From the IMG/VR virus record IMGVR_UViG_2974610597_000001: 64,000 nt of DNA, one strand, 5' to 3'. This DNA is from Escherichia virus ESCO5 (taxonomy: Duplodnaviria > Heunggongvirae > Uroviricota > Caudoviricetes). A program made the translations under genes and the position numbers. Positions 26,408 through 40,611 of the stretch are shown here, in pieces. The number at the start of each line of letters is the position of its first letter. Position 1 is the stretch's first letter. The notes under the pieces are model-generated. The model did no database searches. It was given only the letters and a program-made list of their open reading frames with translations, and was not told the DNA's origin.

Positions 26408-26663
26408 TTACAACCTCCTTAATAGCTACTGCACAGTTCTTACAAATACATTGACCTTTGTTCTTAGAAATTTCAATGTAAGGTTCATTTTCGTTTTCTC
26501 CGCGTCGTGAATCGTATATTACAGTATTGAAGCAGACAACGCAAATGTTTTTAATAACAACATATTTTTGCACTTTTTGTTTAGTGCGAAAATTTACTTC
26601 AATGACTTCTCCCATCAGTGAATCTCCCCTAAAATGTTGTTTTGAGACATTACTGCGGAGCAT
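26385..26663 (-). CDS. Small zinc-ribbon protein
   Basis: CVVC ... CICKNC pattern; exact start uncertain. Confidence 0.3.
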   Translation of the reverse strand: MLRSNVSKQHFRGDSLMGEVIEVNFRTKQKVQKYVVIKNICVVCFNTVIYDSRRGENENEPYIEISKNKGQCICKNCAVAIKEVVNENAWDQ

Positions 26664-26962
26664 TCTACAGCATCATGAGTCCTTGCAAAACGCTCCCACA
26701 GCACAGCATCTACTTTAAGAACCACACAAGGATAAATACTGTCGTTGATCATATCAATGCTATATTTATCTACATCCTTTTCATCTTCCATAAACAAAGT
26801 AGCGTATGCTTCCAAATGTTTACGGGTGTAGTATACGTCCTCTTCGGTAAGACCGACAACCAGGTAACTTGCTACAACAACAGTATTATCTTCTTGCATT
26901 TTAACTCCCCTTTGGTAGATAGAAACCATGCACTTTATCTCGATAAACAAGACGCATATCAC
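26615..26962 (-). CDS. Hypothetical protein
   Basis: 115-aa ORF. Confidence 0.3.
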   Translation of the reverse strand: MICVLFIEIKCMVSIYQRGVKMQEDNTVVVASYLVVGLTEEDVYYTRKHLEAYATLFMEDEKDVDKYSIDMINDSIYPCVVLKVDAVLWERFARTHDAVECSAVMSQNNILGEIH

Positions 26963-27422
26963 GCTCCCAGTGTGTCCTTATATTCCGTTTCTTGAAGTAT
27001 AGAGCACCTTTAGTAACATCTAAAACAGACCGCAATTCAGGAAAATGTTTCTCTAAATAAAGTAAACGCTCCGCTATTGCTTTTGCTTCCTGCCATTTAT
27101 CTTTCTCTGTCACGTTAAAAGTTTTCGCATATGAGAATTGCCCTTTCTGGAACAAGACTCCCTTGACTGTGTTAGGGAAGTAGGCATCATTTCTTCTGTT
27201 GATTACCACATTCCCAACGGCATTCATTCCTTTTTTACCCAGACCGCGACCTTCTGCGTAAATTGCACAAGCTAATAGAATTTTATCATTATATTGCTTT
27301 GTACATTTGTGAACTACTTTAGCGGTTTTTACGTTTGCAGCTTCGGCTTTCGCCACAACAGGTGTAAATGTAAAAGCAGTTAAGGATAGTAACGCAACTG
27401 TTACAAAGTTTTTTATCAGCAA
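26901..27422 (-). CDS. Secreted cell-wall hydrolase, SleB-like (candidate endolysin)
   Basis: 173 aa; N-terminal signal/anchor MLIKNFVTVALLSLTAFTFTPVVAKA; LLACAIYAEGRG ... GNVVINRRNDAYFPNTVKGVLFQKGQFS matches SleB/Hydrolase_2 core. Confidence 0.6.
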   Translation of the reverse strand: MLIKNFVTVALLSLTAFTFTPVVAKAEAANVKTAKVVHKCTKQYNDKILLACAIYAEGRGLGKKGMNAVGNVVINRRNDAYFPNTVKGVLFQKGQFSYAKTFNVTEKDKWQEAKAIAERLLYLEKHFPELRSVLDVTKGALYFKKRNIRTHWERDMRLVYRDKVHGFYLPKGS

Positions 27423-27483
27423 ATTTTGCCTCCTTTTTAAGTTAACGAATTTCTAGTATAACACGATAGAGGCTTTATTGCAA

Positions 27484-27503
27484 GAGGGGGATTTCTCCCC
27501 CTC
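27484..27503. other. GC stem-loop in intergenic region (possible terminator after terD)
   Basis: GAGGGGGA-TTTC-TCCCCCTC perfect inverted repeat; no strong T-run. Confidence 0.3.
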
Positions 27504-27518
27504 AAAATCATTTGTTAA

Positions 27519-28121
27519 TTATGGACATTCATACCATTCTTTTTTACCACCGAAGGCCATTACCACATCGCAAATATCCAGACCAGCTTTACCTACACCA
27601 TATGCTTTCAGCTTCCATTCTCCATCTTCACGAACCAGGGAAGCCACGTGGCAGATTGTGTTGCCAGCTACTTCAGGAGCCAGGAAGTCAAAATCCAGAA
27701 TTTCCACATTACGCTCGGAGTCGAAGATTTTAAGCATACCTTCAGAAGCATGACCAAAACGTTTCAGACCTGTATCATCATCAATAGTCAGAACAAAGGC
27801 AATCTCTTGTGCATCAGGAGAGATTTTAGCCAGAGTAATATCAATCTGCTCCATGCTGCCAGTTCCATCACGAACATCGTCACCAGCAAAGGTAGAACGT
27901 TCAGGATCAAACTTATTAGCATAGCAAACCAGATGACGTGCAGACAGCATTTCAGGATTGCCAGCGGCATTGTGACGACAAACCAGTGCACTTACATCCA
28001 GATCCAGTTTAGAATCAGATTTCCAAGAGAACTCCAGGCGTAGTTCTTTCAGAGCCGGAGCAACTTTCTTCAGGGAAATTTTTTCGCTAGAGCCTTTTTT
28101 CAGGGAAATTTTATCAGTCAT
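27519..28121 (-). CDS. terD: TerD-family stress protein
   Basis: 200 aa; N-terminal ISLKKG...EKISLKK, DLDVSA, GDDVRDG, IAFVLTIDD, REDGEWKLKAYG match conserved TerD-domain blocks. Confidence 0.8.
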   Translation of the reverse strand: MTDKISLKKGSSEKISLKKVAPALKELRLEFSWKSDSKLDLDVSALVCRHNAAGNPEMLSARHLVCYANKFDPERSTFAGDDVRDGTGSMEQIDITLAKISPDAQEIAFVLTIDDDTGLKRFGHASEGMLKIFDSERNVEILDFDFLAPEVAGNTICHVASLVREDGEWKLKAYGVGKAGLDICDVVMAFGGKKEWYECP

Positions 28122-28136
28122 CTTTTGTCTCCTCTA

Positions 28137-28406
28137 TTATTTAAGTGTAATACCAGTTACAGTCAATTCTACTTCCAAAAGCTTAGATGTGTTTTGGATT
28201 GATACTAATTGTGCATGATGGTTTAGTTCTACAGCAGAATAATCATTTTCCCCATCATCTACTTTTAAATAAACAATGATTTCACTAAGGTCTAAACCAT
28301 TTTCGTCAAATGCATTTTCATAGACGAAAGTATCTCCTACATCCAAATCTTTAATGGTAAGGCATCGTTTATTTACTTTTTGCTCATCAATTTCGAAGTT
28401 TAACAC
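28137..28406 (-). CDS. Hypothetical protein (paralog of 29428..29772)
   Basis: 89 aa; shares DLDVGDTF(V/M)Y..A(F/Y)(D/E)(E/D)(N/A)GLD core with the 114-aa paralog. Confidence 0.35.
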   Translation of the reverse strand: MLNFEIDEQKVNKRCLTIKDLDVGDTFVYENAFDENGLDLSEIIVYLKVDDGENDYSAVELNHHAQLVSIQNTSKLLEVELTVTGITLK

Positions 28407-28635
28407 TTCTTCCTCCTAATATTATCTCCGGTTTATATATACGAAGAATTATAGCATTTTCATTTTCTTTGTCAACCCATTCTTCATAATCAGGCCATAC
28501 ATGAATCTCTACTCTACTTACAATATCTTCCATTCGCACAGTCCCAATGAAATACTCTTTGAGACTGCACATAATGAAAGCTTCTCTCTCGCGCCAATAA
28601 TTTTCTATGACTTGAGAGGCAAGCTCGTCGATCAT
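28387..28635 (-). CDS. Hypothetical protein
   Basis: 82-aa ORF with start/stop overlaps. Confidence 0.3.
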   Translation of the reverse strand: MIDELASQVIENYWREREAFIMCSLKEYFIGTVRMEDIVSRVEIHVWPDYEEWVDKENENAIILRIYKPEIILGGRSVKLRN

Positions 28636-29426
28636 TTTTTAGCACCTACTTTAACAACCCACTCTCCGAACTCTTCAGATAAGAGTTTGTCATAAAGCTC
28701 TGAATCTGTCAAGTCTAAATCTTTAATGCCAATAAAACCAACATTATCATAAGCATTTGCCAGTTCTTTCAGGAAGCCAAACTTCTCATTACCAACGCCA
28801 ACCATGAACCAATAAATAGGTTTATTCTTATTCTCTTCAATAAGACGACGAACAGCACTAGGATCACCATTCTCACCATCCGTCTGGAAGAATACAACAC
28901 CAGGGGTAACGTCAGCACCTGGTTCAGACACAGCTACAACCTTTTCACGCTCTACAGATACTGTTTCAGTTTTACCAAGCAGACGATTAAAGAAGCCTTT
29001 CTTTGGAGCCTCTTCTTGTACCACTTGTTTAGTGGTAATATATTTGGTAACAGTGCCAAAATACTCATCGTAGATATCTGCCATTACAGGGGCGTAATTT
29101 GTTCCACCTCCGATACGAACATTACGCATACATTTACCAACATAGTCATCGTAAACGTCTGCTGTTGCTGGAGTAAGCTCTTGGGAACTCGTATTGAAGG
29201 CCCACATATCAATTTGTTGATTATCGTCGAACAGCATACCAAAAGGAAGCAGTTTACCTACAAAATCACTCACTACCCCACTAGAATATAGACCATGCAT
29301 ACTACCAGAAATATCTAGAGCACATGCTACACGAAGAACAATCTTACCTTCATTCAGGTTCTTATTCTTTTTCAGAGAGAAAGCAAGGTTTTCTTGACGT
29401 TTTTTCAGGCTGATTTTATCGGACAT
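28632..29426 (-). CDS. von Willebrand factor A domain protein with TerD-like N-terminus (TerY-like)
   Basis: 264 aa; N-terminus MSDKISLKK near-identical to terD start; MIDAS motif ALDISGSM. Confidence 0.6.
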   Translation of the reverse strand: MSDKISLKKRQENLAFSLKKNKNLNEGKIVLRVACALDISGSMHGLYSSGVVSDFVGKLLPFGMLFDDNQQIDMWAFNTSSQELTPATADVYDDYVGKCMRNVRIGGGTNYAPVMADIYDEYFGTVTKYITTKQVVQEEAPKKGFFNRLLGKTETVSVEREKVVAVSEPGADVTPGVVFFQTDGENGDPSAVRRLIEENKNKPIYWFMVGVGNEKFGFLKELANAYDNVGFIGIKDLDLTDSELYDKLLSEEFGEWVVKVGAKK

Positions 29427-29427
29427 A

Positions 29428-29772
29428 TTATTTCTCCTTCTTAAGTGTAATGTTGGTAACTTCTAAATCTACTTCCACCATATTTGTATCTGGCGGGATG
29501 CAATGAGTATAGCCTCGTTGTGCTAGTGATCCATTAATACAAATCGCACTGTTTGTGGAATTTTTAATGAACACCAAGTTACGGTAGGTATCCAACCCTG
29601 CGTCTTCATAGGCATCATAATACATGAATGTGTCCCCTACGTCAAGATCTTCGAAAGCAATAGGTAAATCCTGACCTTTTTCTTCTTGAATATTGAATCT
29701 AAACACGCATACCTCCTCTACCAATTTTGAAGCCCAAATCGTAAGCTTCCTTAGTAATCTTTTGTAACTCAC
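29428..29772 (-). CDS. Hypothetical protein (paralog of 28137..28406)
   Basis: 114 aa; FEDLDVGDTFMYYDAYEDAGLD core shared with paralog. Confidence 0.35.
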   Translation of the reverse strand: MSYKRLLRKLTIWASKLVEEVCVFRFNIQEEKGQDLPIAFEDLDVGDTFMYYDAYEDAGLDTYRNLVFIKNSTNSAICINGSLAQRGYTHCIPPDTNMVEVDLEVTNITLKKEK

Positions 29773-30262
29773 TTATAGGAAGTGTTACAAGAGGATCATC
29801 TTCTTCAATTTCCATCTTGTCATCTTCTGTTTCAATGAGAGTATTATGCACTTTGTGATAAGGGTTGTCAACACGTTTAAACTTATTCTTTTCTGTGCTG
29901 AAAAAACAATCTGGATCTTCTTCACCATCACCCCAACCTTGATTAGGATCTCCGTCAGATTGTTCTGTAGGGATTTCACCTGTAAAGTACTCTTCCAGCA
30001 CCATAGCAATACCGTCCCTTGGATTTGAGGAATGCATTAAATCACAAACCTTACCCCAATCCATAGCCCATTCGAACCGTTCACGAACGCCATTTTCATC
30101 CTCTTTTCCAGAGAAAACACAACCATAACTATCATAGTTGCCATACATCTCTTCAATAACAACACCGTCTTTCAAAAGAAAGAGGTAGCAAGGTGATCCG
30201 TCGAAAGAAGTAGAAAGGGCAGCTTTGCCCGATTCTTTGCACAAAAAACTAAAACAACCCAT
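29699..30262 (-). CDS. Hypothetical acidic protein
   Basis: 187-aa ORF, Asp/Glu-rich C-terminal half. Confidence 0.35.
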   Translation of the reverse strand: MGCFSFLCKESGKAALSTSFDGSPCYLFLLKDGVVIEEMYGNYDSYGCVFSGKEDENGVRERFEWAMDWGKVCDLMHSSNPRDGIAMVLEEYFTGEIPTEQSDGDPNQGWGDGEEDPDCFFSTEKNKFKRVDNPYHKVHNTLIETEDDKMEIEEDDPLVTLPISELQKITKEAYDLGFKIGRGGMRV

Positions 30263-30465
30263 TACAAACCCTCCTTCAGATTATCAAGAGCTACAGTGGT
30301 TTCACAAAATTCTCCATAAGCTTTATGATGTTCCAGAAAAGCTTCGGGTCCACCCCAGTCATTATCTTGTGTATTCCAACCATCAATAAAAGCATCTTCA
30401 ATGATTGTGATCAGTTCTTGTCGGGTTAACTGGATAATATTAGGATCGTTATCGTAGTTAAACAT
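30262..30465 (-). CDS. Small hypothetical protein
   Basis: 67-aa ORF. Confidence 0.3.
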   Translation of the reverse strand: MFNYDNDPNIIQLTRQELITIIEDAFIDGWNTQDNDWGGPEAFLEHHKAYGEFCETTVALDNLKEGL

Positions 30466-30631
30466 CTTCTTCCTCCTCTAAAATATGAAACCCGTAATTA
30501 CAATAGTCCTGAAAGGTTTCGTGCGCAAGATCTTCTATATCCTCTTGAGACATATCATCTTCAATTTCGATATCCACAACCTCATTGCATCCACACCAAG
30601 CAGTTTCAATATTCACTCGTAATATTTTCAT
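30458..30631 (-). CDS. Small acidic protein (missed by ORF track, 57 aa)
   Basis: ATG at 30631 overlaps upstream stop (TAATG); MKILRVNIETAWCGCNEVVDIEIEDDMSQ...; fills an otherwise empty 170-bp gap. Confidence 0.3.
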   Translation of the reverse strand: MKILRVNIETAWCGCNEVVDIEIEDDMSQEDIEDLAHETFQDYCNYGFHILEEEEDV

Positions 30632-30828
30632 TACTCCTCCTCCTCATTGAAGTCAATATCTGCAAGGAGTTCGAATTTACGGAAGTTACGACAACCTTCA
30701 TAAATATAACAATCACGACAAACTGCTAGAACACTTGGGGGATATATGCCTCCCATCGGTGCGAATCGTTTTTCGTCATCATAACGGACACCAATGTCTT
30801 CATCAATTATATAGATACGGATTCTCAT
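30631..30828 (-). CDS. Small hypothetical protein
   Basis: 65-aa ORF. Confidence 0.3.
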   Translation of the reverse strand: MRIRIYIIDEDIGVRYDDEKRFAPMGGIYPPSVLAVCRDCYIYEGCRNFRKFELLADIDFNEEEE

Positions 30829-31937
30829 TTACCAAGCCCTCGTTTCACAGCAGCTACCATCCCGTCTTCCAGAGATTGAACTTCATTAATATAATCAACA
30901 CGAGCAGCACGGGCTTCCGTATTGATGCGGTTAGTTTCTTCCAACATCTTAACCAAGTTTTCCTGATCGTGACGCAGAGTTTCAATATCCAACACTTGAC
31001 GGTTAGCCAGTGCTGCTGCTTCGATCTGATTCTGTGTGGCAAGATCGCTACCTAGTTTAATTGCCAGGTTAAATTCATCAAGAACGTTATTCTGCGTCTC
31101 TGCTGCTTTCATTTGACGTAAGCTCTCGATATACATTGAGAAGTTAGCAGAGTAAGCAGGAATAACATTATTTACTATGTTACGCGCAGATCGCATTAAG
31201 CTTGCAGAAACTTTTTGCATACCTTGTACACGCGGTCCCATTTGGACACACAGTAGGCGCAACGCCTTTAAATCTGCAATACGAATCTCCAGGAGATCCA
31301 AAGTATCTCGGATCACTTGTCGCTGTTCTACGGCATCTTCTGGAAGAGCAGCCAAAGCTTGTTCTTCTTTTTCATAGGTTGCTGTTAGAAGCTGCATATC
31401 TCGGTTCAAACTTGCAGCATATTGTCCAATAGCTTGGTGTAGCTTTTCAAGATATACCAAGGAATCTTCTTCTTTGCGAATATCCATTTGAAGGTTCTTT
31501 ACCAACTCTTCAATACGGTTATTAACATTATCAAACTCCCCAAACAGGTCTTCTTTCATACCCATAACTTTTTTAATGAGTTTAGTAATACCCTTGCTTT
31601 GTTTAATAGAGTTTGGATCAAGTTGTTTTGCCTGTTTAATCAAGGCTGTGAGTCGTTCACTCATCTGATCGCCTTGATTACTACGTTGATGTTTTAACAC
31701 CTCGGCATTCAAGGAACGCAAGGTTGTTCCTGCCTCTGCCCCAATCTCTTCGATCTCTTGTCGGGTCATAGAAGGTAAAACTGGAACTTCTTGCGGTGCT
31801 GCTGGTGCATAAACAGGACTGGCATCTAACACACTTGGAGCAAATACAGATTTACTTGCATCTGTTGTTGCAGCGAATACACTCATTTCAGACTTCTTCT
31901 GACCACCAGTAGCTGCTTTTAAAAATGGACTTGTCAT
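30825..31937 (-). CDS. TelA-like (toxic anion resistance family) coiled-coil protein, tentative
   Basis: 370 aa, long alpha-helical/coiled-coil architecture with Ala/Pro-rich N-terminus; size, composition and Ter-gene context suggest TelA/KlaA family; no diagnostic motif verified. Confidence 0.3.
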   Translation of the reverse strand: MTSPFLKAATGGQKKSEMSVFAATTDASKSVFAPSVLDASPVYAPAAPQEVPVLPSMTRQEIEEIGAEAGTTLRSLNAEVLKHQRSNQGDQMSERLTALIKQAKQLDPNSIKQSKGITKLIKKVMGMKEDLFGEFDNVNNRIEELVKNLQMDIRKEEDSLVYLEKLHQAIGQYAASLNRDMQLLTATYEKEEQALAALPEDAVEQRQVIRDTLDLLEIRIADLKALRLLCVQMGPRVQGMQKVSASLMRSARNIVNNVIPAYSANFSMYIESLRQMKAAETQNNVLDEFNLAIKLGSDLATQNQIEAAALANRQVLDIETLRHDQENLVKMLEETNRINTEARAARVDYINEVQSLEDGMVAAVKRGLGK

Positions 31938-32524
31938 TCTTCATTCTCCTCTTCTGCATCTCTTATATATGGTGAAACACCGTACTCTTTAGCTACTTTA
32001 ACCCAATCATCCCATTTATACAACCATAATTTTCCTTCAGTTCCTTCTTTATCTGATTTCAACCACATGTTAGGTTGCTTGCCTGGGTACATGCGATTAG
32101 GTTTACGATTATAACCTCTAACACATCTTGTCGCAAACCTATCTACCAGAACAAGAACATATTTATATTCGTGGTTCAACGGCTCTTTGGAAGTGGCTTT
32201 AGGATTAGCTCCTAATTCTGCTGCCAGTTTTTGCCAATGAGCACCGTGTCTACTAAACTTACCCATACAACCATCAATAGCATGAGCAATTTCGTGCTTC
32301 ATTGTATCCACGATCATATCTCTTGTAGAGTTCTTATGCAAGTGCCAATTTACAACAACAATTTTATCTCGGTAGTTGCACCAACCGAAAGAGTTATTAA
32401 CTTTGTTTCTAACACAAGCTTTATATCCTGCTTCACGTAACATGTTGTAGTAAACAGGAAAATCTTCTTTTATTTCCTGCATCACTTCCCACCACAAGAG
32501 TTGCAAGTCTCTCTCGGTATGCAT
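31934..32524 (-). CDS. SprT-like zinc metallopeptidase domain protein
   Basis: 196 aa; HExxH motif in MKHEIAHAIDGCMGKFSRHGAHW, preceded by conserved Trp-rich N-terminus. Confidence 0.5.
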   Translation of the reverse strand: MHTERDLQLLWWEVMQEIKEDFPVYYNMLREAGYKACVRNKVNNSFGWCNYRDKIVVVNWHLHKNSTRDMIVDTMKHEIAHAIDGCMGKFSRHGAHWQKLAAELGANPKATSKEPLNHEYKYVLVLVDRFATRCVRGYNRKPNRMYPGKQPNMWLKSDKEGTEGKLWLYKWDDWVKVAKEYGVSPYIRDAEEENEE

Positions 32525-32527
32525 AAC

Positions 32528-33121
32528 TTACACCTTAAAAGCGAAATGCGTGGTCGTGGCTTCAAAATCAGGGCCAGATAAACTTGCACTGAAATCTGAA
32601 ATATTTGTAATTAAAAAGCTTTTATGCATACCTAACACAGCCACGCTTTCAATATCTTCTACTAACATTTCAATCATGTTAGAAACATGGCTGAACGTAG
32701 AGTTTTGTTTTTTGATGGTGTAGAAAGAAAGATTCCCACCTGCTATATAAGACACCTCTTCAAAATCTTTAATCGTATATTGTGTGCCATCAGTAAAGAA
32801 AATGGTAGCTTTATTAGTAGCACGTTTCTTGTTTTTTGGTCCTTTTTTACGTTTACTGCGAGTAGGCAAACCGTTTGGAAATACCGTAGCTACAAATTCT
32901 TCAGGAGAAACCTCCTTACCGAAATCATAACCGTAAGAAACAGCGTCTATAAACTCGTCGTCTTCATTTTTAAAATAATGAAAATAGGGCCAATTTGAGA
33001 GATTATCGAGCATCTTATGCTCATCCACAGCAGAGAACGTATCCCTCAAAGCACGTGTGATTTGCAAAGCATTAGGCAAACTTTTAACACCTGTAATGGA
33101 AGTACGAATAGAAATTGTCAT
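32528..33121 (-). CDS. Hypothetical protein
   Basis: 197-aa ORF with KR-rich central patch. Confidence 0.35.
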   Translation of the reverse strand: MTISIRTSITGVKSLPNALQITRALRDTFSAVDEHKMLDNLSNWPYFHYFKNEDDEFIDAVSYGYDFGKEVSPEEFVATVFPNGLPTRSKRKKGPKNKKRATNKATIFFTDGTQYTIKDFEEVSYIAGGNLSFYTIKKQNSTFSHVSNMIEMLVEDIESVAVLGMHKSFLITNISDFSASLSGPDFEATTTHFAFKV

Positions 33122-33135
33122 TGTTTTTCTCCTTA

Positions 33136-33573
33136 TTAACGTCGCTTGCTACGAGATGAACTCTTTTTACTTAAAGGACTATTGTAAGATTTACGAGTTG
33201 TATAGCTACTATTTGTTTTAAAAGTTTGTCTCGGCTTTTCATAAGTTTTTATCTCTTGTTTAGGCTTACTATAAAAATTAGTTTTCGGTTTAGGTGTATT
33301 ATAATGCTTATTAATAATCGTTCTGTTATCGTTATAATCCCCACTGCTACGATTACTACCGCCACTCATCATATGCCCTAACAACATACCTGTAGCAAAC
33401 TCACCAACACCGCTACTACTAGAACCGCCACCATTGTTGATAATAGTTGTATCTCCGTCAGATCCTTGTTGAGCGTATTGTTGAGGAGGTTGTTGGTATT
33501 GTGCAGGATTTGTTTCATCCTCGCAAGCTGTTAAAAAGATACAACCAATTAAAATCAGGGCTAGTTTTTTCAT
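33136..33573 (-). CDS. Lipoprotein, Gln/Gly/Ser-rich
   Basis: Start refined to ATG at 33573 giving MKKLALILIGCIFLTAC (signal peptide plus lipobox LTAC). Confidence 0.45.
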   Translation of the reverse strand: MKKLALILIGCIFLTACEDETNPAQYQQPPQQYAQQGSDGDTTIINNGGGSSSSGVGEFATGMLLGHMMSGGSNRSSGDYNDNRTIINKHYNTPKPKTNFYSKPKQEIKTYEKPRQTFKTNSSYTTRKSYNSPLSKKSSSRSKRR

Positions 33574-33760
33574 ATTTGCTTTCCTCGTTTTGGCTATTAA
33601 TACATCTGTGTTTGAAATCTCCAGAGAAGCAATAAAGTTGCTCTCCATCTCGGTATAAACTCACTTTACTGCCGTTGATTACGCTTGTCAATACAAAAAT
33701 TACAACAAACAACCCTATTGCAAAACAAATATTTTCAAACACAACCAACAAGTATTTCAT
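33515..33760 (-). CDS. Small membrane protein
   Basis: 81 aa with one hydrophobic helix (VVFENICFAIGLFVVIFVL). Confidence 0.3.
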   Translation of the reverse strand: MKYLLVVFENICFAIGLFVVIFVLTSVINGSKVSLYRDGEQLYCFSGDFKHRCINSQNEESKYEKTSPDFNWLYLFNSLRG

Positions 33761-34107
33761 TTTAAAAATACCTCATCATCAGTTTCATTATCCCAGAAGA
33801 ACAAGTCCCAACCATTCGGATCATTCCATTTAGCTGCTGGAGAAGTCCATATTTGCTCGATATCAATATTCAAAACTTCACCGTTTCGTTTTGAAACAGC
33901 TTTAGTTAATTCCCAACGGGATACAGGCTCCACTTCCCCTGAACCACTCCCACAACAAGCTACCACATTAGGAGGCAAATTAATTGGATCTTTGGTCACA
34001 ATCATAACGCTTACCCCAGGGTAAACTTTTGAAAGATAATCTAAAACGTAATCCACATCACCAGATAAATCCCAAACAAGTTCTTGAATTTCATCAAAAT
34101 TATTCAT
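33757..34107 (-). CDS. Hypothetical protein
   Basis: 116-aa ORF. Confidence 0.35.
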   Translation of the reverse strand: MNNFDEIQELVWDLSGDVDYVLDYLSKVYPGVSVMIVTKDPINLPPNVVACCGSGSGEVEPVSRWELTKAVSKRNGEVLNIDIEQIWTSPAAKWNDPNGWDLFFWDNETDDEVFLK

Positions 34108-34149
34108 AAGTCTCTCCTATAAAATAGCCTCCCGAAGGAGGCTCATCTA

Positions 34150-35223
34150 TTAAACAGCAGCTTCTTCTTTTTCAGGGAAGATAAAGCTTGCAATAACACC
34201 AAGAGATAATGTGCCTAGAACAATCATCAGACTTACGTTAGGGGAAATATCATGCGGGAGGAATGACCACTTGGCATGAAGTGTTTCACCGAACGGGTGA
34301 TACATAAGTTTAGCACCAACAAACACCAGAACCACAGCAACAGCTTTCTCTAAGTGAACCAGATATTTCACAGCTACACTTAACACAAAGAAAAGTGCAC
34401 GTAAACCAAGAACAGCCATCAGCATTGCAGAATAAACTAGCAGAGGTTCTTGTGTCACACCGATTACAGCCGGAACTGAATCAAAAGAGAAGACAATATC
34501 TGTAAGCTCAATAACAAACACACAAAGAAGAGCAGGAGTTGCATATTTAATACCATTCTTAATGGTAATGAACTTTTCACCATCTAGTGCATTGTGCACA
34601 GGCAGAACTTTACCTACTAAACGAACAGCCCAATGCTTAGAGTAATCAATATCCTCTTCTTCGTCACCACCTTTGATGATAGCCACGGCAGACCAAGCTA
34701 CAATCAAACCGAACAACACTTGGACCGACCAATGAAGGTTAAACAAAGCGGTCCCTGCTGCAACAAAAATACCTCGGAAGACAATGGCTCCTGCAATCCC
34801 CCAAAGTAAAATCTTATGTTGAAGATGTGTGCTCTTAATTCCAAAGCTTGCAAAAATTGCCATGAATACCATCAGGTTATCTACAGAAAGACTCTTTTCC
34901 AACACATAGCCACTTAGGAAAAGCGCGGCAAACTCTTTACCATGTTCTACCCAAATGAATGCGTAATATCCTAAAGCTAAAGCAATCCAAAAAACAGACC
35001 AAAGCAAAGCAGATTTAATTCCAATTTCTTTATTTTTACCATGTTCTACCCAAATGAATGCGTAATATCCTAAAGCTAAAGCAATCCAAAAAACAGACCA
35101 AAGCAAAGCAGATTTAATTCCAATTTCTTTATTCTCTTTATGACCAAAGAAATCGATACCAATAGACAATGCCAAAATACCAACTAAAACAACTACATCA
35201 ATAATTGGGAAACCGAGTTGCAT
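34150..35223 (-). CDS. terC: TerC-family integral membrane protein, containing an in-frame 33-aa tandem duplication
   Basis: 357 aa, multiple TM helices; signature LEKSLSVDNLMVF; segment KNKEIGIKSALLWSVFWIALALGYYAFIWVEHG occurs twice consecutively. Confidence 0.75.
   Translation of the reverse strand: MQLGFPIIDVVVLVGILALSIGIDFFGHKENKEIGIKSALLWSVFWIALALGYYAFIWVEHGKNKEIGIKSALLWSVFWIALALGYYAFIWVEHGKEFAALFLSGYVLEKSLSVDNLMVFMAIFASFGIKSTHLQHKILLWGIAGAIVFRGIFVAAGTALFNLHWSVQVLFGLIVAWSAVAIIKGGDEEEDIDYSKHWAVRLVGKVLPVHNALDGEKFITIKNGIKYATPALLCVFVIELTDIVFSFDSVPAVIGVTQEPLLVYSAMLMAVLGLRALFFVLSVAVKYLVHLEKAVAVVLVFVGAKLMYHPFGETLHAKWSFLPHDISPNVSLMIVLGTLSLGVIASFIFPEKEEAAV
34939..35136. repeat. Near-perfect 99-bp tandem direct duplication inside terC coding sequence
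   Basis: 34939..35037 and 35038..35136 identical over about 95 bp (accatgttctacccaaatgaatgcgtaatatcctaaagctaaagcaatcc...), diverging only in last few bases. Confidence 0.9.
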
Positions 35224-35240
35224 TCTTTTCTCCTCTCTTT

Positions 35241-35301
35241 GCGGGGAACTATTCCCCGCTTCATTTGATATATATCTTACTCTTTTTAAGAACTATGTCA
35301 A
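35241..35301 (-). promoter_or_regulatory. Promoter plus 5'-UTR hairpin cassette driving terC
   Basis: Minus-strand reading: TTGACA - 16 nt - TAAGAT, then hairpin GCGGGGAA-TAG-TTCCCCGC, then SD AGAGGAG and ATG; same architecture and near-identical hairpin as cassette at 57455..57510. Confidence 0.5.
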
Positions 35302-35304
35302 CAC

Positions 35305-35526
35305 TTATTTTGTTGAATGAGAGGAAAAGATTCCTCGTAATACCGCCAGAATAAACGAAACACAAACCACGGTCCAGAAGGTTACTGGGACAGTGATATC
35401 TGCATGACCCATAACTTCAGCAACATAGTTGTAAGCCAGCAACAGTAACCAAGCTGGAATCAAACTAAGCATAAAAGCAATAACAAAAAAGCTTACCACC
35501 GCAATAATACCTGCAAAAACACCCAT
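35305..35526 (-). CDS. Small membrane protein
   Basis: 73 aa, two hydrophobic helices. Confidence 0.3.
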   Translation of the reverse strand: MGVFAGIIAVVSFFVIAFMLSLIPAWLLLLAYNYVAEVMGHADITVPVTFWTVVCVSFILAVLRGIFSSHSTK

Positions 35527-35538
35527 ACTAATCTCCTC

Positions 35539-36012
35539 TTAAAGTTTATAAATAGTCACATCGTGACCTGTTTTTACTAAAGTTTCTTCAATCATCACTT
35601 GGATGATAGCCCAATTACCTCCAGCATATCCAGCGCCAATCATAGGTAAGCCGATCTTACATTTTTGGTCACGGAGAAGCACATCATTAGCCATAGCTAT
35701 TAGTGCATCGTAAAGTGCATCATAGTCCAACTGACGACCTTTAGCATTGTATCCGTAACGGTATTGCCCGTATAGATTATATACCAAAGGGTCTGATTGT
35801 TCGTCTGGCACCCCTAAACTAAAAGAACCTAACTTACTTTGATCACCAGCCATTGTGTCTAAATCTGCCGCATATGCATAAGGGAATGCTCGTTTAATTT
35901 GCGGAGCAATTCCTGCCCCCATATTACACATACAATTGCAACAATGAGCAATAACAGTTACTTCACCTGCTTTAGCGGCATCAATAAGATTACCTGTTTT
36001 CATTTTAAGCAT
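35539..36012 (-). CDS. Macro-domain protein (ADP-ribose binding/hydrolase family)
   Basis: Start refined to ATG at 36012 (TAAGGAG 6 nt upstream); VIAHCCNCMCNMGAGIAPQI and KIGLPMIGAGYAGGNW correspond to the two Gly-rich ADP-ribose-binding loops of macro domains. Confidence 0.55.
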   Translation of the reverse strand: MLKMKTGNLIDAAKAGEVTVIAHCCNCMCNMGAGIAPQIKRAFPYAYAADLDTMAGDQSKLGSFSLGVPDEQSDPLVYNLYGQYRYGYNAKGRQLDYDALYDALIAMANDVLLRDQKCKIGLPMIGAGYAGGNWAIIQVMIEETLVKTGHDVTIYKL

Positions 36013-36025
36013 TTTTAGCTCCTTA

Positions 36026-36853
36026 TTACAGAATGTGTTGTTTTGTGTAACGATCCAAGAATTCAAAGTTTTCAGCATACTTTGAAATTCGGTTGTAACC
36101 TTCTCCCAAACATCCGAAGAAAAGTTGCTCTACATAGTAGTGTGGCAATTGGCTAAGAATGATTTTGAAGTCTTCGTGATTTTGGCCCATAAGATACTTA
36201 ATAGGACGAACAAGACACTGTGCATCACGTTCTTCATTAATCATTTTAACAAACGCTTCTGGTGTATTGATATAGTTAAAATTCAGTTTAGCTTCAGTAT
36301 CTGCTTGATTACCTTCATATTTTGCAAAATACAAGAAGTAAACATCATTTTTAACTTGATTTTCATCAAGAATCTCAATCAGTTTGTCTTCATGAGTTCC
36401 GGTGATATTTACATCATCAATGAACACAAGCTTCTTATCACCCCAGAATTCTTTGTTGCAGTAGAATGTATCCCCATCAATAAGTTTCTTACGACTAGCT
36501 TTATCCAAGAAACCATAATCGTTGATATAGCTAACTTTACGATGAATAATATCCAGTTCTGCTGAACGACCTTGATCATATTGTGCTTGCAACATATTAA
36601 AGTAATTAATAAAATGATCTGTCATCATTGTTGCAGCATTGTGCACATGGTTATAAGGAGAAGGGATGATAACAAATTGTTCCCCAATATGTTTCATTGC
36701 CACTTGAGCAAAAAACTGAAGTACCAATTCTTTACCCATACGACGCGCAGCTTGGTTACTACCAAATTTCAATTTTGAATAGTCTTTGATATCAAAAGTA
36801 GCAGTTTCCAGGTCATCAAATTTATTTGCAAAAATTTGAGTTTGATTACGCAT
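36026..36853 (-). CDS. Phosphoribosyltransferase-like protein (type I PRT fold)
   Basis: 275 aa; PRPP-binding-type motif KKLVFIDDVNITGTHED (hydrophobic run, two acidic residues, then T-G-T). Confidence 0.45.
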   Translation of the reverse strand: MRNQTQIFANKFDDLETATFDIKDYSKLKFGSNQAARRMGKELVLQFFAQVAMKHIGEQFVIIPSPYNHVHNAATMMTDHFINYFNMLQAQYDQGRSAELDIIHRKVSYINDYGFLDKASRKKLIDGDTFYCNKEFWGDKKLVFIDDVNITGTHEDKLIEILDENQVKNDVYFLYFAKYEGNQADTEAKLNFNYINTPEAFVKMINEERDAQCLVRPIKYLMGQNHEDFKIILSQLPHYYVEQLFFGCLGEGYNRISKYAENFEFLDRYTKQHIL

Positions 36854-37502
36854 TTACAATTTCTCCTCTTTTAAGTTTCTCTAGTAAGTCGTTAGGGTTC
36901 TTAATATGACAGAAGTTAATCCCTATGTCAACACATTTACCATCAAATTCTTCGCTGTCCCCAACATGTAAAATCTCTTCAGCCTTCAAAGGAATGCTTG
37001 AATATGTGGCGGTCCTAACAAAGAATCTAGGATCTGGTTTACATAACAGATGTTCGTCTGAAAAATGCATAAATTCAAAACAATTCCAACTGTCGAACAT
37101 ACAAGCACGACGCAAAATATCCCCAGATATAAAATTAGTATTGCTTTTAATACTAAGATCATATTTACCAGACAAGTATAGCAAACAAACTGGCAAATCT
37201 AAAGCGATATGTGGAGGAAATTTAAGAAACCATTGCTCACAATCAAAACGCATTTGTGCAGATTCTACAGGGGTTAAACCTATCTTTCTTCCCAACATAT
37301 TCCATGCATATGCTACACCTTCTGCACACCCATTTAGTGCAGCATTATCCATAATTTCTTTGGCATCTTTATATGCTTCTTTTGCCGCACGTTCAGACAT
37401 TCTACCATATGTAGCAATAGTGTGCGTACGTGCATCTGCATAGTTTTGATTGGCAGAAATAAGAGTATTCCATACATCAAAAGAAATATGTTTTATTGTC
37501 AT
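36846..37502 (-). CDS. HAD-superfamily hydrolase-like protein
   Basis: N-terminal ISFDVWNTL (degenerate motif I), CKPDP (motif III Lys), HVGDSEEFD (motif IV); start codon uncertain (ATG at 37502 or 37520). Confidence 0.4.
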   Translation of the reverse strand: MTIKHISFDVWNTLISANQNYADARTHTIATYGRMSERAAKEAYKDAKEIMDNAALNGCAEGVAYAWNMLGRKIGLTPVESAQMRFDCEQWFLKFPPHIALDLPVCLLYLSGKYDLSIKSNTNFISGDILRRACMFDSWNCFEFMHFSDEHLLCKPDPRFFVRTATYSSIPLKAEEILHVGDSEEFDGKCVDIGINFCHIKNPNDLLEKLKRGEIVNA

Positions 37503-37503
37503 A

Positions 37504-38109
37504 CTAGGCCCACCACGCATCAAGATTTAAGTTACTGTCTACCACAACTTGTTCTATGTGGTAGCCTTTTATCTGTATCCCACTGTTCAAGAGCATATCA
37601 TATGCTTCATTGAAACGCAACTTATCTTCTGCGGAATATAAGCGAGCATTGTAAAATCGGTAATCAAGTTCTTCAGCATTAGAAGAAATACGGAAGAAGT
37701 TTGTTTCTACTTCAGGATCACTTGCTGAAGTTTTAATGTGAACTTCTCCGTAATTTTCTTTGCTTAGATCCATGAAAAGAACACAGGCAACATGTTTAAA
37801 CATTCGTTCCAGTTTGTAACGAACAACATTGAAACCTGCGTTCTCAAGTTTTTCTACACATTGCAACATTAACGTAGTGTCGAGATCGCTTTGATACTTT
37901 GTTAACATACGATCACGTTGAGACTTTGTATCCCGATGTAAATCAATTGTTGTGCATTTGGCACCAATGATCTTAGCTGCTTTCATCAACTCTTCAGAAC
38001 TAACGTTAGATAAAGTAAGATGAAAATGGGCTTTCCACACTTTTTTAGCAGGGACACCAAAAGATTTATCCCCACTATTCGGCATGTTGACTACTACACT
38101 ATGTTGCAT
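37504..38109 (-). CDS. Hypothetical protein (weak 2H-phosphoesterase-like features)
   Basis: 201 aa; one clear H-x-T-x motif (HFHLTLS), second motif degenerate (VHIKTS). Confidence 0.25.
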   Translation of the reverse strand: MQHSVVVNMPNSGDKSFGVPAKKVWKAHFHLTLSNVSSEELMKAAKIIGAKCTTIDLHRDTKSQRDRMLTKYQSDLDTTLMLQCVEKLENAGFNVVRYKLERMFKHVACVLFMDLSKENYGEVHIKTSASDPEVETNFFRISSNAEELDYRFYNARLYSAEDKLRFNEAYDMLLNSGIQIKGYHIEQVVVDSNLNLDAWWA

Positions 38110-38124
38110 TACTTATCTCCTCAC

Positions 38125-38349
38125 TTAAAATGGAAGTCTTTGAAGTTCATCTCCTCCGATATCAAGTAATTTAGCAACATCTCGATCAGAAAGCAACTCT
38201 TTTCTTTGTAAAATATCCACAAGGGTTGCAAGAATGTCCTTAACGTCCCGATCACTGTTCTTCAAAAGTTCTCCTGCCGTCCCTACCCTATCTCCTACAG
38301 CAAAATATGTAACCATAAAACCTCCTACGCTAATCTGATTGCCAACCAC
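38125..38349 (-). CDS. Small hypothetical protein
   Basis: 74-aa ORF downstream of nrdG. Confidence 0.3.
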   Translation of the reverse strand: MVGNQISVGGFMVTYFAVGDRVGTAGELLKNSDRDVKDILATLVDILQRKELLSDRDVAKLLDIGGDELQRLPF

Positions 38350-38800
38350 TCGCCGTTTTGGTCCATAATCTTTGATTATCTGACCCTCTGAAAGGTTTTG
38401 TGGTTGGATTGTTTATTTCATACTTTCCGTCTACAATAATGTCAACAAGATTTTTAATATACAAAGGCACTTCCTCAAAAGTATATCCTGTATACACCAT
38501 TATATCTTTGCTTGACCCATAAACGTCTCTAACCTTTTCTATAAGGTTTTTAACATTGTAAATATTCTGCGGATCTAATGGTTCTCCTCCTAAAATTGTT
38601 AAACCTTTTACAAACGGTCTTGACAAATCTTTTAAAACTTGCTCTACATTTTCGTTAGTGAACGGTTTCCCATAAGAATAAGACCAGGCTTTCTGGTTAA
38701 AACAGCCACGACAACCGTGGCTACAACCACTAACCCAGAGGGAGCACCTAACTCCCTCACCATTAATAAGATCTACAGGTTCATATCCTGCAAAATTCAA
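38330..38800 (-). CDS. nrdG: Anaerobic ribonucleotide reductase activating protein (radical SAM)
   Basis: 156 aa; radical-SAM cluster motif CSHGCRGC (Cx3Cx2C) near N-terminus; overlaps nrdD stop (ATGA). Confidence 0.75.
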   Translation of the reverse strand: MNFAGYEPVDLINGEGVRCSLWVSGCSHGCRGCFNQKAWSYSYGKPFTNENVEQVLKDLSRPFVKGLTILGGEPLDPQNIYNVKNLIEKVRDVYGSSKDIMVYTGYTFEEVPLYIKNLVDIIVDGKYEINNPTTKPFRGSDNQRLWTKTASGWQSD

Positions 38801-40611
38801 AGATGTTTCTCCCTTTGCAAAACTTCCTGCATTTTACCTTTGTTATAAGGCCGTGAATTAGGGGCAGAAAGATACCCTGATACACGTCTAACTACAGAAA
38901 TAGTTTCTTCTTCATGGTTGCCACAATTAGGACACTCAAACCCTTTAGCCGTTGCCTTAAATTCTCCATGAAAACCACACTTAAAGCATTGATCCACGGG
39001 CTGATTAATACCAAAATAGTGAATATGTTCATAAGCGTAGTCTACTAAAGTCTCCAAAGCTTCTAAGTTATTCTTTAAGTTTGGTGTTTCGACATAACTT
39101 ATGTTACCACCATTGCTAATCTGTGCAAAACCTGCTTCATAATCCCATTTTTCAAAAGGATTTGTTACCAACCATACAGGTTGATGAAAAGAATTAGTAA
39201 GATAGTCTCTTTCTACCAGACCTGGATATTTTTCATTTAAAGCTGTTGCAAATTTATAGCACAAGGATTCTGCTGGAGTTCCATAAAGACTAAATGCCAA
39301 CTTAGATCGTTCTTTAAACACAGCACACACATCTTTCATATGTTGCAGAATGTTTTTACCTAGTTCCTTTTTATCTTTTTCCTCTGGATAAAGGATTTCC
39401 AAAGCTTCGGCAAGACCTACATAACCAATACTAATAGAAGCATAACCACCTTCAAACAAAGCACCAATTTCATCGTTGGCATTTAAACGCGCTAAAGCCC
39501 CTTCCATGAAAAGAATAGGGTTTTCAGATGCTTTGGTATGTCTGATACGGTTTACACGTAGCATGTGAGCATCGTAGGCTATCTCCATATGTTTATTAAG
39601 AAGATCGGTGAAAGATTCTCCTTTACTTCTCGCTTCCGCAGCAATCAGAGGCAAGTTGATAGAAACTACTCCAAGGTTGAATCGTCCATCATATTTTTCT
39701 CCTTGTTCGGTGGCATAGTACGACAAAAAGGAACGACAACCCATACTCGTAACGGTACCATCTGCTGATCCCGTAACTTCTTTGTTCAAAGGAACAGAAA
39801 TAAAATCTGGATAAATACGATCAGCACAACATGCCAAAGCTTGTTGCTTAAGGTCGTAGTTAGGATCACTAGGTTTCATGTTAACACCTTCTTGTAAAAA
39901 GAAAATAACTTTAGGGAATACAGGCGTTACATGATCTTTACCTAGACCGTTACTATGCACTTTAAGATAGTTAGCTGTGATCATTCTGCCAAAAACAGAG
40001 GTATCCAGACCCATACTGATTGTAATAAAAGGAGATTGTCCATTAACACTCATTAAAGTGTTAACCTGATACAAAAGAGTTTGCATAGCGTCATATACAT
40101 CTTGTTCGGTCATTTCTAGGGCTTCTTTCCTTGCATAACAACCGTAGCGACGTTTGGTTATCTCCATGTTTTTAAGGAAACTGGCTTCAACATAAGGACT
40201 AAGACCTTTATCAATGTGCGCACACGTCTGACCTCCATACTGACTGGAGGCAACAGCTTGGATGATTTGAGTTAGCACTGTAGTAGCTACTCCAATAGAT
40301 TTTGGTTTTTCTATCTGTGCAGCACCGATCTTAAAACCATTCTCTAACATATCTTGATAATTAACAAGACAACAGTTTGTAAGAGGAGAGAGCAGATAAT
40401 CCAAGTCGTGAATATGTCCAAAACCTTCTGTATGCCATTCTGACAAGTTTTTTGGCAGTATCTGTGTCATTGCCATATGTTTGCTTAAAATCCCCGCCAA
40501 GAGATCCCTGTGCGTGTTAACAAGGTGGGAAGGTTTGTTTGCATTCTCTCTAGTGTATGTTTCTGAAGTGCGATCTAAAAAAGAAAAAACATCTTGGTAC
40601 AAATCTTTCAT
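38797..40611 (-). CDS. nrdD: Anaerobic ribonucleoside-triphosphate reductase (class III RNR)
   Basis: 604 aa; C-terminal zinc ribbon CFKCGFHG...CPNCGNHE and glycyl-radical motif RRVSGYL. Confidence 0.85.
   Translation of the reverse strand: MKDLYQDVFSFLDRTSETYTRENANKPSHLVNTHRDLLAGILSKHMAMTQILPKNLSEWHTEGFGHIHDLDYLLSPLTNCCLVNYQDMLENGFKIGAAQIEKPKSIGVATTVLTQIIQAVASSQYGGQTCAHIDKGLSPYVEASFLKNMEITKRRYGCYARKEALEMTEQDVYDAMQTLLYQVNTLMSVNGQSPFITISMGLDTSVFGRMITANYLKVHSNGLGKDHVTPVFPKVIFFLQEGVNMKPSDPNYDLKQQALACCADRIYPDFISVPLNKEVTGSADGTVTSMGCRSFLSYYATEQGEKYDGRFNLGVVSINLPLIAAEARSKGESFTDLLNKHMEIAYDAHMLRVNRIRHTKASENPILFMEGALARLNANDEIGALFEGGYASISIGYVGLAEALEILYPEEKDKKELGKNILQHMKDVCAVFKERSKLAFSLYGTPAESLCYKFATALNEKYPGLVERDYLTNSFHQPVWLVTNPFEKWDYEAGFAQISNGGNISYVETPNLKNNLEALETLVDYAYEHIHYFGINQPVDQCFKCGFHGEFKATAKGFECPNCGNHEEETISVVRRVSGYLSAPNSRPYNKGKMQEVLQREKHL

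Follow-up and report, generated by a model that had tools for sequence, protein, structure and literature searches.

A Ter gene set joined to a phosphoribosyltransferase–HAD pair in the replication region of Escherichia phage ESCO5

Why should a virulent bacteriophage carry a run of Ter-family genes among those for its own replication, and do the phosphoribosyltransferase (PRTase) and HAD hydrolase genes beside them belong to the same system? The question is raised by a block of 10 kb in Escherichia phage ESCO5, lying between positions 27,519 and 38,109 of the 64,000-nucleotide stretch analysed here (IMG/VR record IMGVR_UViG_2974610597_000001; hereafter the window). An initial annotation made from the letters of the window had proposed that the phage encodes its own version of the bacterial Ter system, joined to PRTase and HAD enzymes. 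That proposal is supported by profile searches, structure comparison and gene neighbourhoods: TerD and TerC were assigned to their families, the other calls did not turn out to be unrelated folds, and linkage between the genes was found in other genomes.

In the Ter network defined by Anantharaman, Iyer and Aravind in 2012, as it is summarised in PMC7824862, PRTase and HAD enzymes synthesize a signal, TerB and TerD act as sensors, TerC is the membrane component, and TelA together with TerF-vWA proteins forms sub-membrane structures. ESCO5 itself is a virulent Phapecoctavirus of the Stephanstirmvirinae (the phAPEC8 group) isolated on avian-pathogenic E. coli (KX664695.3 / NC_047776.2), and the block is 100% identical to that record, in which a position equals the window position + 84346. 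Every gene of the Ter/PRTase/HAD/macro block is carried on the minus strand; that they share one strand had been noted at the outset. The long leftward block around them holds genes for a single-stranded DNA-binding protein, DNA polymerase I, a methyltransferase, a primase/helicase, four glycosyltransferases, a SleB-like hydrolase, NrdG/NrdD and further ribonucleotide reductase (RNR) and helicase functions, so that the earlier description of a virulent phage replication region is a fair one.

The Ter proteins and the enzyme pair

The domain identities of the block proteins are close to certain, and each of the family calls of the initial annotation was borne out. The six genes on which the argument turns are as follows.

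27519..28121, minus strand: TerD-domain protein, 200 aa (Pfam TerD, E 3e-28)
28632..29426, minus strand: TerF-type vWA protein, 264 aa (Pfam vWA-TerF-like, E 1.6e-37)
30825..31937, minus strand: TelA-family protein, 370 aa, soluble and helical (Pfam TelA, PF05816, E 3e-33, residues 59-361)
34150..35223, minus strand: TerC/Alx-family integral membrane protein (Pfam TerC, E 4e-40)
36026..36853, minus strand: PRTase_3 (ComF-like) type-I phosphoribosyltransferase, 275 aa (Pfam PRTase_3, E 2.7e-41)
36846..37502, minus strand: HAD-IA (REG-2-like) hydrolase, overlapping the start of the PRTase gene (motifs I-IV in 18 homologues)

The alignment of the TerD protein with 2kxt, a solved Klebsiella TerD, is full-length (1.5e-15, residues 5-183), and the DLDxSA motif is retained; the protein is likely to be a Ca2+-type beta-sandwich. 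The vWA protein has an intact metal ion-dependent adhesion site (MIDAS) pattern, DxSGS...T...D, of which the DxSGS, GGT and TDG columns are invariant among nine phage homologues. Its N-terminus had been described as a copy of the TerD start, and the two do read MSDKISLKK and MTDKISLKK respectively; however, the strand motif concerned, hxLxK(R/G)...hxLxK, opens TerD domains and all phage vWA-TerF-like proteins alike, and the resemblance is therefore a trait of the family. Plausibly it is a remnant of TerF, in which a TerD and a vWA domain are combined. TelA falls in PHROG 5890, which is labelled 'tellurite resistance'.

TerC exceeds the cut-off of the NCBIfam TerC/Alx metal-homeostasis model (TIGR03718, 335 bits against 246), is 46% identical to enterobacterial plasmid TerC, and would by its family be an Alx/TerC-type inner-membrane metal-ion transporter. 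In its public-record form the protein has nine predicted transmembrane helices, whereas in the terC of the window a 99-bp stretch stands twice in perfect tandem (34936-35133, 2.0 copies, 100% match), with TAAAGAG microhomology at its flanks; this adds 33 aa and doubles predicted helix 2 to give ten. The duplication is absent from the current ESCO5 record (NC_047776.2/KX664695.3) and from all related phages, and is either an artefact of assembly or sequence version or an inactivating variant. As a candidate regulatory element upstream of terC, a yybP-ykoY Mn2+ riboswitch or other riboswitch was rejected, there being zero Rfam matches at E<=1 across 26500-39000; E. coli alx, unlike the phage gene, has such a yybP-ykoY element.

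The protein in which a motif of the type that binds phosphoribosyl pyrophosphate (PRPP) had been recognised proved to be a member of PRTase_3. Its PRPP loop, DDxxxTGxT, has D146, D147, T151, G152 and T153 invariant in 65 sequences. No sequence-level relative was found among PDB sequences, and the AlphaFold (AF2) model (predicted local distance difference test score, pLDDT, 94), which includes an additional C-terminal helical domain, retrieved type-I PRTases with Foldseek, with HGPRT at E 8e-7, TM-scores of 0.38-0.46, and ComF 7p0h among them. Loop and modelled fold together indicate a type-I phosphoribosyltransferase. An attempt to name the substrate from structure was abandoned, as the neighbours are too distant (10-17% identity).

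The HAD protein is only weakly recognised in Pfam (E 1.4e-3, below the cut-off) and is placed by the NCBIfam REG-2-like model (1.4e-8) and by 2om6 (3.7e-5); its annotated coding sequence occupies 36846-37502, and a 225-aa open reading frame (ORF) extends to 37523. The motifs S-x-D, SN(T)NF, (S)KP and H-x-GD-x3-4-D are at least 90% conserved in the 18 homologues. In motif I (FDVWNTL here) the nucleophilic Asp is intact, and the position two residues beyond it is Trp in this protein and aromatic in 18/18 homologues, in place of the Asp acid/base (DxDxT) of bona fide phosphatases. As this general acid is absent, the label 'phosphatase' is an assumption, and the protein, whose likeness is to REG-2-like and dehalogenase-type HADs, may be something other than an ordinary phosphatase.

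Conservation, linkage and relation to known Ter systems

Synteny of the whole block extends to the sister genus Justusliebigvirus (PaulScherrer/Bas60, phi92), with the order NrdG ... HAD-PRTase-macro-p73-TerC-p81-p170-p197-TelA-p67-p187-p92-vWA-TerD-...-SleB, and this order is repeated in five IMG/VR relatives (L011-L015); more than 60 GenBank phage records hold at least 80% of the 10-kb block. Between the two genera, where synonymous divergence (dS) is near saturation and ratios of nonsynonymous to synonymous change (dN/dS) are accordingly rough, values of 0.10-0.19 were obtained for TerD (0.13, at 81% identity to the PaulScherrer orthologue), vWA, TelA (0.10), TerC, p187 and p73, comparable to those of NrdG and SleB, and 0.42 for the HAD. 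The Ter genes are thus evolving under purifying selection.

The wider neighbourhood of the enzyme pair was surveyed with PRTase_3 homologues gathered from phage records, plasmids, metagenome assemblies and IMG/VR. A HAD of the Trp-variant type lies directly upstream of PRTase_3 in 24/25 loci, the exception being L029, where a weak HAD-like ORF lies two genes upstream. TerC, TerD, vWA-TerF-like and/or TelA genes were found within 10 kb of the pair in L006, L007, L008/L020, L017, L021, L023, L024 and L029 (TerD matches on vWA ORFs from the iterative TerD profile, which was contaminated by TerF, were left out of these counts). They are often contiguous with the pair, and their order varies between loci, as in TerC-x-TerD-x-vWA-HAD-PRTase and TelA-vWA-...-TerC-HAD-PRTase-TerD. 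Retention of proximity under shuffled order argues for functional coupling of the Ter genes and the pair. The linkage claimed in the initial annotation is therefore seen to recur, but in only about half of some 19 independent lineages; it is real, yet not obligatory. Among 50,697 phage records, 157 were positive for PRTase_3 and 149 for TerD (~0.3%), and the host-name distributions of the two sets nearly coincide, eleven Rhizobium phages apart. The Xanthomonas phage XaC1 and the Brevundimonas phage group, in which the pair stands away from Ter genes, encode TerD/TelA elsewhere in the genome. A place for the macro gene in the module, which had also been proposed, holds in this subfamily and few others, as the gene adjoins the pair only in Stephanstirmvirinae and lies within 6-8 kb of it in two other lineages; the link of macro to pair is weak.

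Two of the surveyed neighbourhoods deserve separate mention. In XaC1-like phages the pair sits among RNA-repair genes (RNA ligase, CCA-adding enzyme, Nudix, PTH2) and beside a DUF2828+DUF7788 protein (L005 12941-14527; L027 7152-8555; L028 10967-12562). DUF7788 has a DxSGS MIDAS-like motif and reached E 0.13 in an hhalign comparison of shallow alignments with TerF-type vWA, and a vWA-type protein may be a common partner of the pair. In L006 (12337-14612) a Ter-HAD-PRTase_3 operon is followed by YqeY, a PnuC-type nicotinamide mononucleotide (NMN) transporter and a NadR-like AAA_28 protein, an arrangement which hints at a link with NAD/nicotinamide-riboside salvage.

Phage Ter modules have been annotated and published before, and the ESCO5 block adds no new kind of element to them. 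GenBank and RefSeq entries for ESCO5 and its relatives already carry the labels 'TelA-like protein / tellurite resistance', 'integral membrane protein TerC', 'TerD family protein', 'putative (orotate) phosphoribosyltransferase', 'hydrolase/phosphatase', 'VWA domain-containing protein' and 'macro domain-containing protein'. Gene products 172/173 (TerD) and 178 (TelA) of phi92, a Justusliebigvirus with the orthologous block, were flagged in 2015, and ter genes have been reported in phiPsa374 (terC, terD, terF, telA) and phiKp34. Iyer et al. 2021 had already set out Ter systems of phages that include PRTase and HAD, and suggested that jumbo phages and certain smaller related tailed phages use Ter against superinfecting phages (PMC7824862). 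Taken as a group, these modules (ME3, Caulobacter/Brevundimonas jumbo phages, phiPsa374, phiKp34, phi92) belong to virulent phages and share the core of TerC, TerD, TerF-type vWA and TelA. Acinetobacter phage vB_AbaM_ME3, like ESCO5, adds the PRTase and HAD pair, whereas phiPsa374-like and RaK2/PBECO4-like phages have TelA, with or without other Ter genes, and no PRTase_3. What ESCO5 has beyond the described modules is the macro domain, the duplicated p89/p92, the SprT-like peptidase and the small membrane proteins. In the published work examined we found no discussion of the PRTase-HAD link in the ESCO5/phAPEC8 group.

The classical ter locus of IncHI2/Klebsiella plasmids and E. coli O157 islands comprises terZABCDE(F) and a divergent terW-ATP-grasp-PRTase-...-HpcH operon. 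In the Klebsiella plasmid locus of our set (L009) these are represented by TerZ, TerA, TerB, TerC, TerD, TerE and TerF remnants, and divergently by an ATP-grasp protein, a 380-aa PRTase-domain protein, a hypothetical protein, a StiP protease, an HpcH/HpaI lyase, DUF4236 and TerW. The phage proteins resemble their counterparts to varying degrees: TerC as given above, TerD at ~30% identity to TerD/TerE, and the vWA protein in likeness to the TerF C-terminus. The suggestion that bacterial Ter neighbourhoods pair with PRTase and HAD enzymes stood insofar as both systems share the idea of a linked PRPP-dependent biosynthetic module; the classical plasmid locus, however, uses a different and larger set. 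Its 380-aa PRTase went unmatched by phmmer, the phage enzyme being of another family; five TerD-domain proteins are replaced in the phage by a single TerD and the TerD-like N-terminal remnant of the vWA protein; TerB, TerZ/A/E, ATP-grasp, HpcH/HpaI lyase, StiP and TerW were not found among the block ORFs; DUF4236 is confined to the classical locus, and TelA to the phage. As such, the ESCO5 block is an abbreviated Ter system and not a copy of terZABCDEF.

Comparably reduced sets exist. The B. subtilis envelope-stress operon yceCDEFGH encodes the TerD paralogues YceC/D/E, the TerC-family protein YceF/MeeF and the TelA-family protein YceH, but is not known to encode a vWA protein or a PRTase/HAD pair. 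It shares with the phage the same minimal set of TerD, TerC-family and TelA proteins without TerB, and in some phage records the TerD gene indeed goes by the name 'yceD, general stress protein 16U'; the phage TerC, however, is of the Alx/TerC subfamily and the B. subtilis protein of the YkoY/YceF type. The RK2 kilA/telAB genes (klaA-klaB/telA-klaC/telB) share the TelA family protein (PF05816) but have no TerC, TerD, vWA or PRTase, while no TelB homologue was detected in the phage. MeeF is presented in PMC10550928 as a TerC-family metalation factor.

Candidate roles of the block

We tentatively favour, at a probability of about 0.4, the explanation that the ESCO5 block is a functional, phage-encoded, abbreviated Ter system which would act as an early-expressed inner-membrane device protecting the envelope of the infected cell. 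Two phage genera have kept the set under purifying selection, and unrelated large phages have it again with the gene order shuffled. Host RNA polymerase would transcribe the genes early, using promoters of sigma-70 type, for which consensus-like sites lie upstream of p89-terD, p92-vWA and terC. PRTase_3 would couple a base or nucleophile to PRPP, and its HAD partner would process the ribose-5-phosphate product; the resulting nucleoside-like compound would be bound by TerD, vWA and TelA, acting with TerC at the inner membrane. The infected cell might in this way be kept sealed and energised until lysis, with the net effect that DNA entry of superinfecting phages is excluded and pore-forming or depolarising insults are blunted. 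Superinfection exclusion and envelope protection are favoured because plasmid ter gives phage inhibition and colicin resistance, phenotypes recorded in PMC7824862 (and by Whelan 1995, as cited in later papers); a further point in favour is that TerC-family proteins are metal exporters or metalation factors (PMC10550928). The role of the block is not tellurite resistance as such.

A number of observations weigh against this explanation. Sigma-70-like promoter matches precede p89-terD (28475..28448, minus strand, 12/12 with an extended -10) and p92-vWA (29871..29843, minus strand, 11/12), but they come from consensus scoring only, and in total such matches are no more numerous than expected from shuffling. 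The acidic Ca2+ loop of TerD (GDN..GDGDDE) is only partly retained, the HAD has lost the acid/base residue of bona fide phosphatases, and the doubled helix should upset the topology of TerC. TerB, central in the classical system, gave zero Pfam matches in the 20 block ORFs scanned, although it is optional in abbreviated Ter systems. No Ter gene was found within 10 kb of the pair in L002, L003, L005, L016, L018, L022 and L025-L028, neighbourhoods which include a Rhizobium plasmid, Brevundimonas phages, and Xanthomonas phage XaC1 and relatives, and the pair may thus not be dedicated to Ter. PADLOC defence models did not match TerD, vWA, TelA, TerC, PRTase or HAD. Furthermore, no published experiment on a phage Ter module came to light, and the phiPsa374 authors state that the function in phage infection is unknown.

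A more specific proposal, which we hold to be rather unlikely, is that the Trp-variant HAD and PRTase_3 form a dedicated two-enzyme pathway for an undescribed ribosylated small molecule, with MIDAS vWA proteins (TerF-like in Ter-linked loci, or DUF2828/DUF7788 in XaC1-like phages) as its receptors, and that together with TerC, TerD and TelA these would give virulent phages a membrane switch of their own, controlled by a second messenger and serving superinfection immunity or the countering of abortive infection. Were it true, the postulated Ter nucleoside-like metabolite would be directly testable in a tractable E. coli phage.

Two genes flanking the enzyme pair bear on the alternatives.

35539..36012, minus strand: macro domain protein, 157 aa, of the TARG1/DarG/SCO6735 clade (5e3b at 4.7e-13)
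37504..38109, minus strand: p201, adjacent accessory protein, 201 aa, directly upstream of the HAD gene

The macro assignment made at the outset is upheld by the match to 5e3b, with further solved macrodomains at 1.7e-6 (TARG1) and 4.6e-6 (DarG macro, 5m31); in Pfam it is borderline (22.1 bits against a cut-off of 22.0), and the full ORF of 179 aa spans 35539-36078. DarG profiles were matched at 3e-10 (PADLOC) and 1e-8 (NCBIfam, 34.8 bits against a cut-off of 250), but a DarG antitoxin proper, which joins the macro domain to a C-terminal DarT-binding domain and is paired with DarT, was not encountered, the protein being macro-only at 157 aa with no DarT neighbour. As for p201, two PADLOC 'AbiEi' profiles were matched (5e-13, 4e-12), and there was no match in Pfam, NCBIfam or PDB sequences. 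Its AlphaFold (AF2) model (pLDDT 82) consists of tandem ferredoxin-like halves whose equivalent strands carry invariant H28/H30/T32 and E122/H124/K126, with no AbiEi-like fold and no convincing solved structural relative. Phapecoctavirus has the gene and Justusliebigvirus lacks it, and it is probably not part of the Ter module.

It may be asked whether the block, and in particular p201-HAD-PRTase_3-macro, is instead a counter-defence island that neutralises host immunity rather than excluding phages, whether by removing an ADP-ribose (ADPr) mark or signal, through the synthesis or breakdown of a nucleotide-like signal, or by helping the membrane to withstand abortive-infection effectors. The clade of the macro domain and the AbiEi matches of p201 point in this direction, as do the Acb3 and cREC genes near the Ter-PRTase cluster of L008 and the proposal that phage macro domains degrade host ADPr signals (PMC7824862). 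We nevertheless consider it unlikely: the DarG match falls far below the NCBIfam cut-off, the p201 model offers neither an AbiEi-like fold nor a clear relative and the gene is missing in Justusliebigvirus, macro lies near PRTase_3 in only three lineages, and the ligand and metal motifs of the Ter proteins are intact, as in working components and not decoys. Alternatively, two unrelated cassettes may merely be neighbours, a Ter membrane module on one side and a HAD-PRTase_3 (+ macro) unit of nucleotide, NAD-ADPr or RNA-repair metabolism on the other. Occurrences of the pair without Ter neighbours, in the Rhizobium plasmid, the Brevundimonas phages and the XaC1-like phages, where it stands beside the RNA ligase, CCA-adding enzyme, Nudix, PTH2 and DUF2828/DUF7788 genes, are readily accommodated by such a separation, as are the YqeY, PnuC and NadR-like genes of L006 and the fact that the HAD-PRTase_3 end of the block abuts NrdG/NrdD in ESCO5. 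Against it, the pair immediately adjoins TerD, vWA, TerC or TelA in at least seven unrelated loci with differing orders, and this despite the rarity of TerD among phage records; PRTase_3 and TerD records have nearly the same host distribution, and XaC1 and the Brevundimonas group have Ter genes elsewhere in the genome. Two independent cassettes are thus also improbable in our estimation.

A simpler role in metal homeostasis, with TerC exporting or loading Mn2+/Ca2+/Zn2+ and TerD and vWA as buffers, so as to metalate exported phage proteins or to hold cytoplasmic metal at levels suited to phage enzymes such as RNRs, would agree with the TerC/Alx 'metal homeostasis' model that TerC passes and with the metalation of exoenzymes and effects on Zn/Mn ascribed to TerC proteins in PMC10550928 and PMC12054061. 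RNR genes are adjacent, and a SleB-like hydrolase with a signal peptide adjoins Ter genes here and in L023 and L029. However, SleB-type hydrolases are not known metalloenzymes, adjacency to RNR genes is ordinary in a replication module, terC is preceded by no yybP-ykoY riboswitch or other Rfam element, and TelA, vWA and the PRTase/HAD pair are left unexplained; we therefore regard a metal role on its own as quite unlikely. Last, and in keeping with the PHROG and RefSeq labels of TelA ('tellurite resistance', moron/auxiliary metabolic gene), the block could be a tellurite- or xenobiotic-resistance 'moron' of benefit to the host. Very little credence can be given to this, for the phage is virulent and there is no lysogen to benefit, the TerB and TerZ/A/E set needed in the classical determinant is missing, and the phiPsa374 authors conclude likewise.

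The block is of interest beyond this phage. Ter function has been an open question since the 1990s, in systems that are widespread in bacteria, clinical Klebsiella and E. coli O157 included, and with which phage inhibition, colicin resistance, metal stress and virulence have all been connected. The compact, strongly conserved phage version is simpler than the 15-20-gene plasmid locus, and ESCO5, phAPEC8, phi92 and the BASEL Justusliebigvirus are tractable. For phages of therapy cocktails, 'tellurite resistance' labels have raised regulatory flags, and on the evidence given here that label looks misleading.

Companion genes and neighbouring features

Interspersed with the genes discussed above are eight others.

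28137..28406, minus strand: p89, small protein just upstream of terD, paralogue of p92 (35% identity, E 1e-14)
29428..29706, minus strand: p92, small protein just upstream of the vWA gene, paralogue of p89, kept in Justusliebigvirus
29699..30262, minus strand: p187, conserved module protein (PHROG 14928; syntenic orthologue in PaulScherrer, dN/dS 0.16)
31934..32524, minus strand: SprT-like metallopeptidase, overlapping the telA start (Pfam SprT-like, E 4e-9)
32528..33121, minus strand: p197, conserved module protein with a basic stretch, orthologues in all Stephanstirmvirinae loci
33136..33648, minus strand: p170, predicted lipoprotein with a low-complexity tail (annotated start gives MKKLALILIGCIFLTAC; syntenic in L004)
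33515..33760, minus strand: p81, small single-pass membrane protein (predicted transmembrane segment 5-23; syntenic)
35305..35526, minus strand: p73, small two-pass membrane protein between the macro gene and terC (predicted transmembrane segments; syntenic)

The paralogy of p89 and p92 extends into the genes that follow them: the duplicated DNA unit takes in the small gene together with the ribosome-binding site (RBS) and the opening nine codons of the Ter gene after it, and this local duplication has sharpened the resemblance between the vWA and TerD N-termini in ESCO5. Neither p187 (Pfam, NCBIfam and PADLOC profiles) nor p197 (Pfam and NCBIfam) matched any family. For p170, the RefSeq record uses an internal ATG as the start, and one hydrophobic segment is predicted. 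The SprT-like gene is a Phapecoctavirus accessory insert, with no orthologue at this position in Justusliebigvirus (L004).

Around terC, a promoter-like site lies at 35301..35274 (minus strand; TTGACA-16-TAAGAT, 10/12), an 8-bp GC-rich hairpin, GCGGGGAA-tag-TTCCCCGC (35241-35259, minus strand), immediately precedes the RBS, and a terminator-like hairpin (34143..34126, minus strand) follows right after the stop codon. Directly downstream of terD, at 26901-27422 on the minus strand, is the SleB/Hydrolase_2-type cell-wall hydrolase with its N-terminal signal peptide, homologues of which also adjoin the Ter genes of L023 and L029.

A minor observation concerns the public records of these phage genera. 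Five 'Campylobacter phage' entries with C. jejuni as host (MG065639, MG065645, MG065650, MG065656 and MG065689) are essentially E. coli Phapecoctavirus/Justusliebigvirus genomes, with up to 100% protein identity, which suggests either mislabelled hosts or contaminating coliphages.

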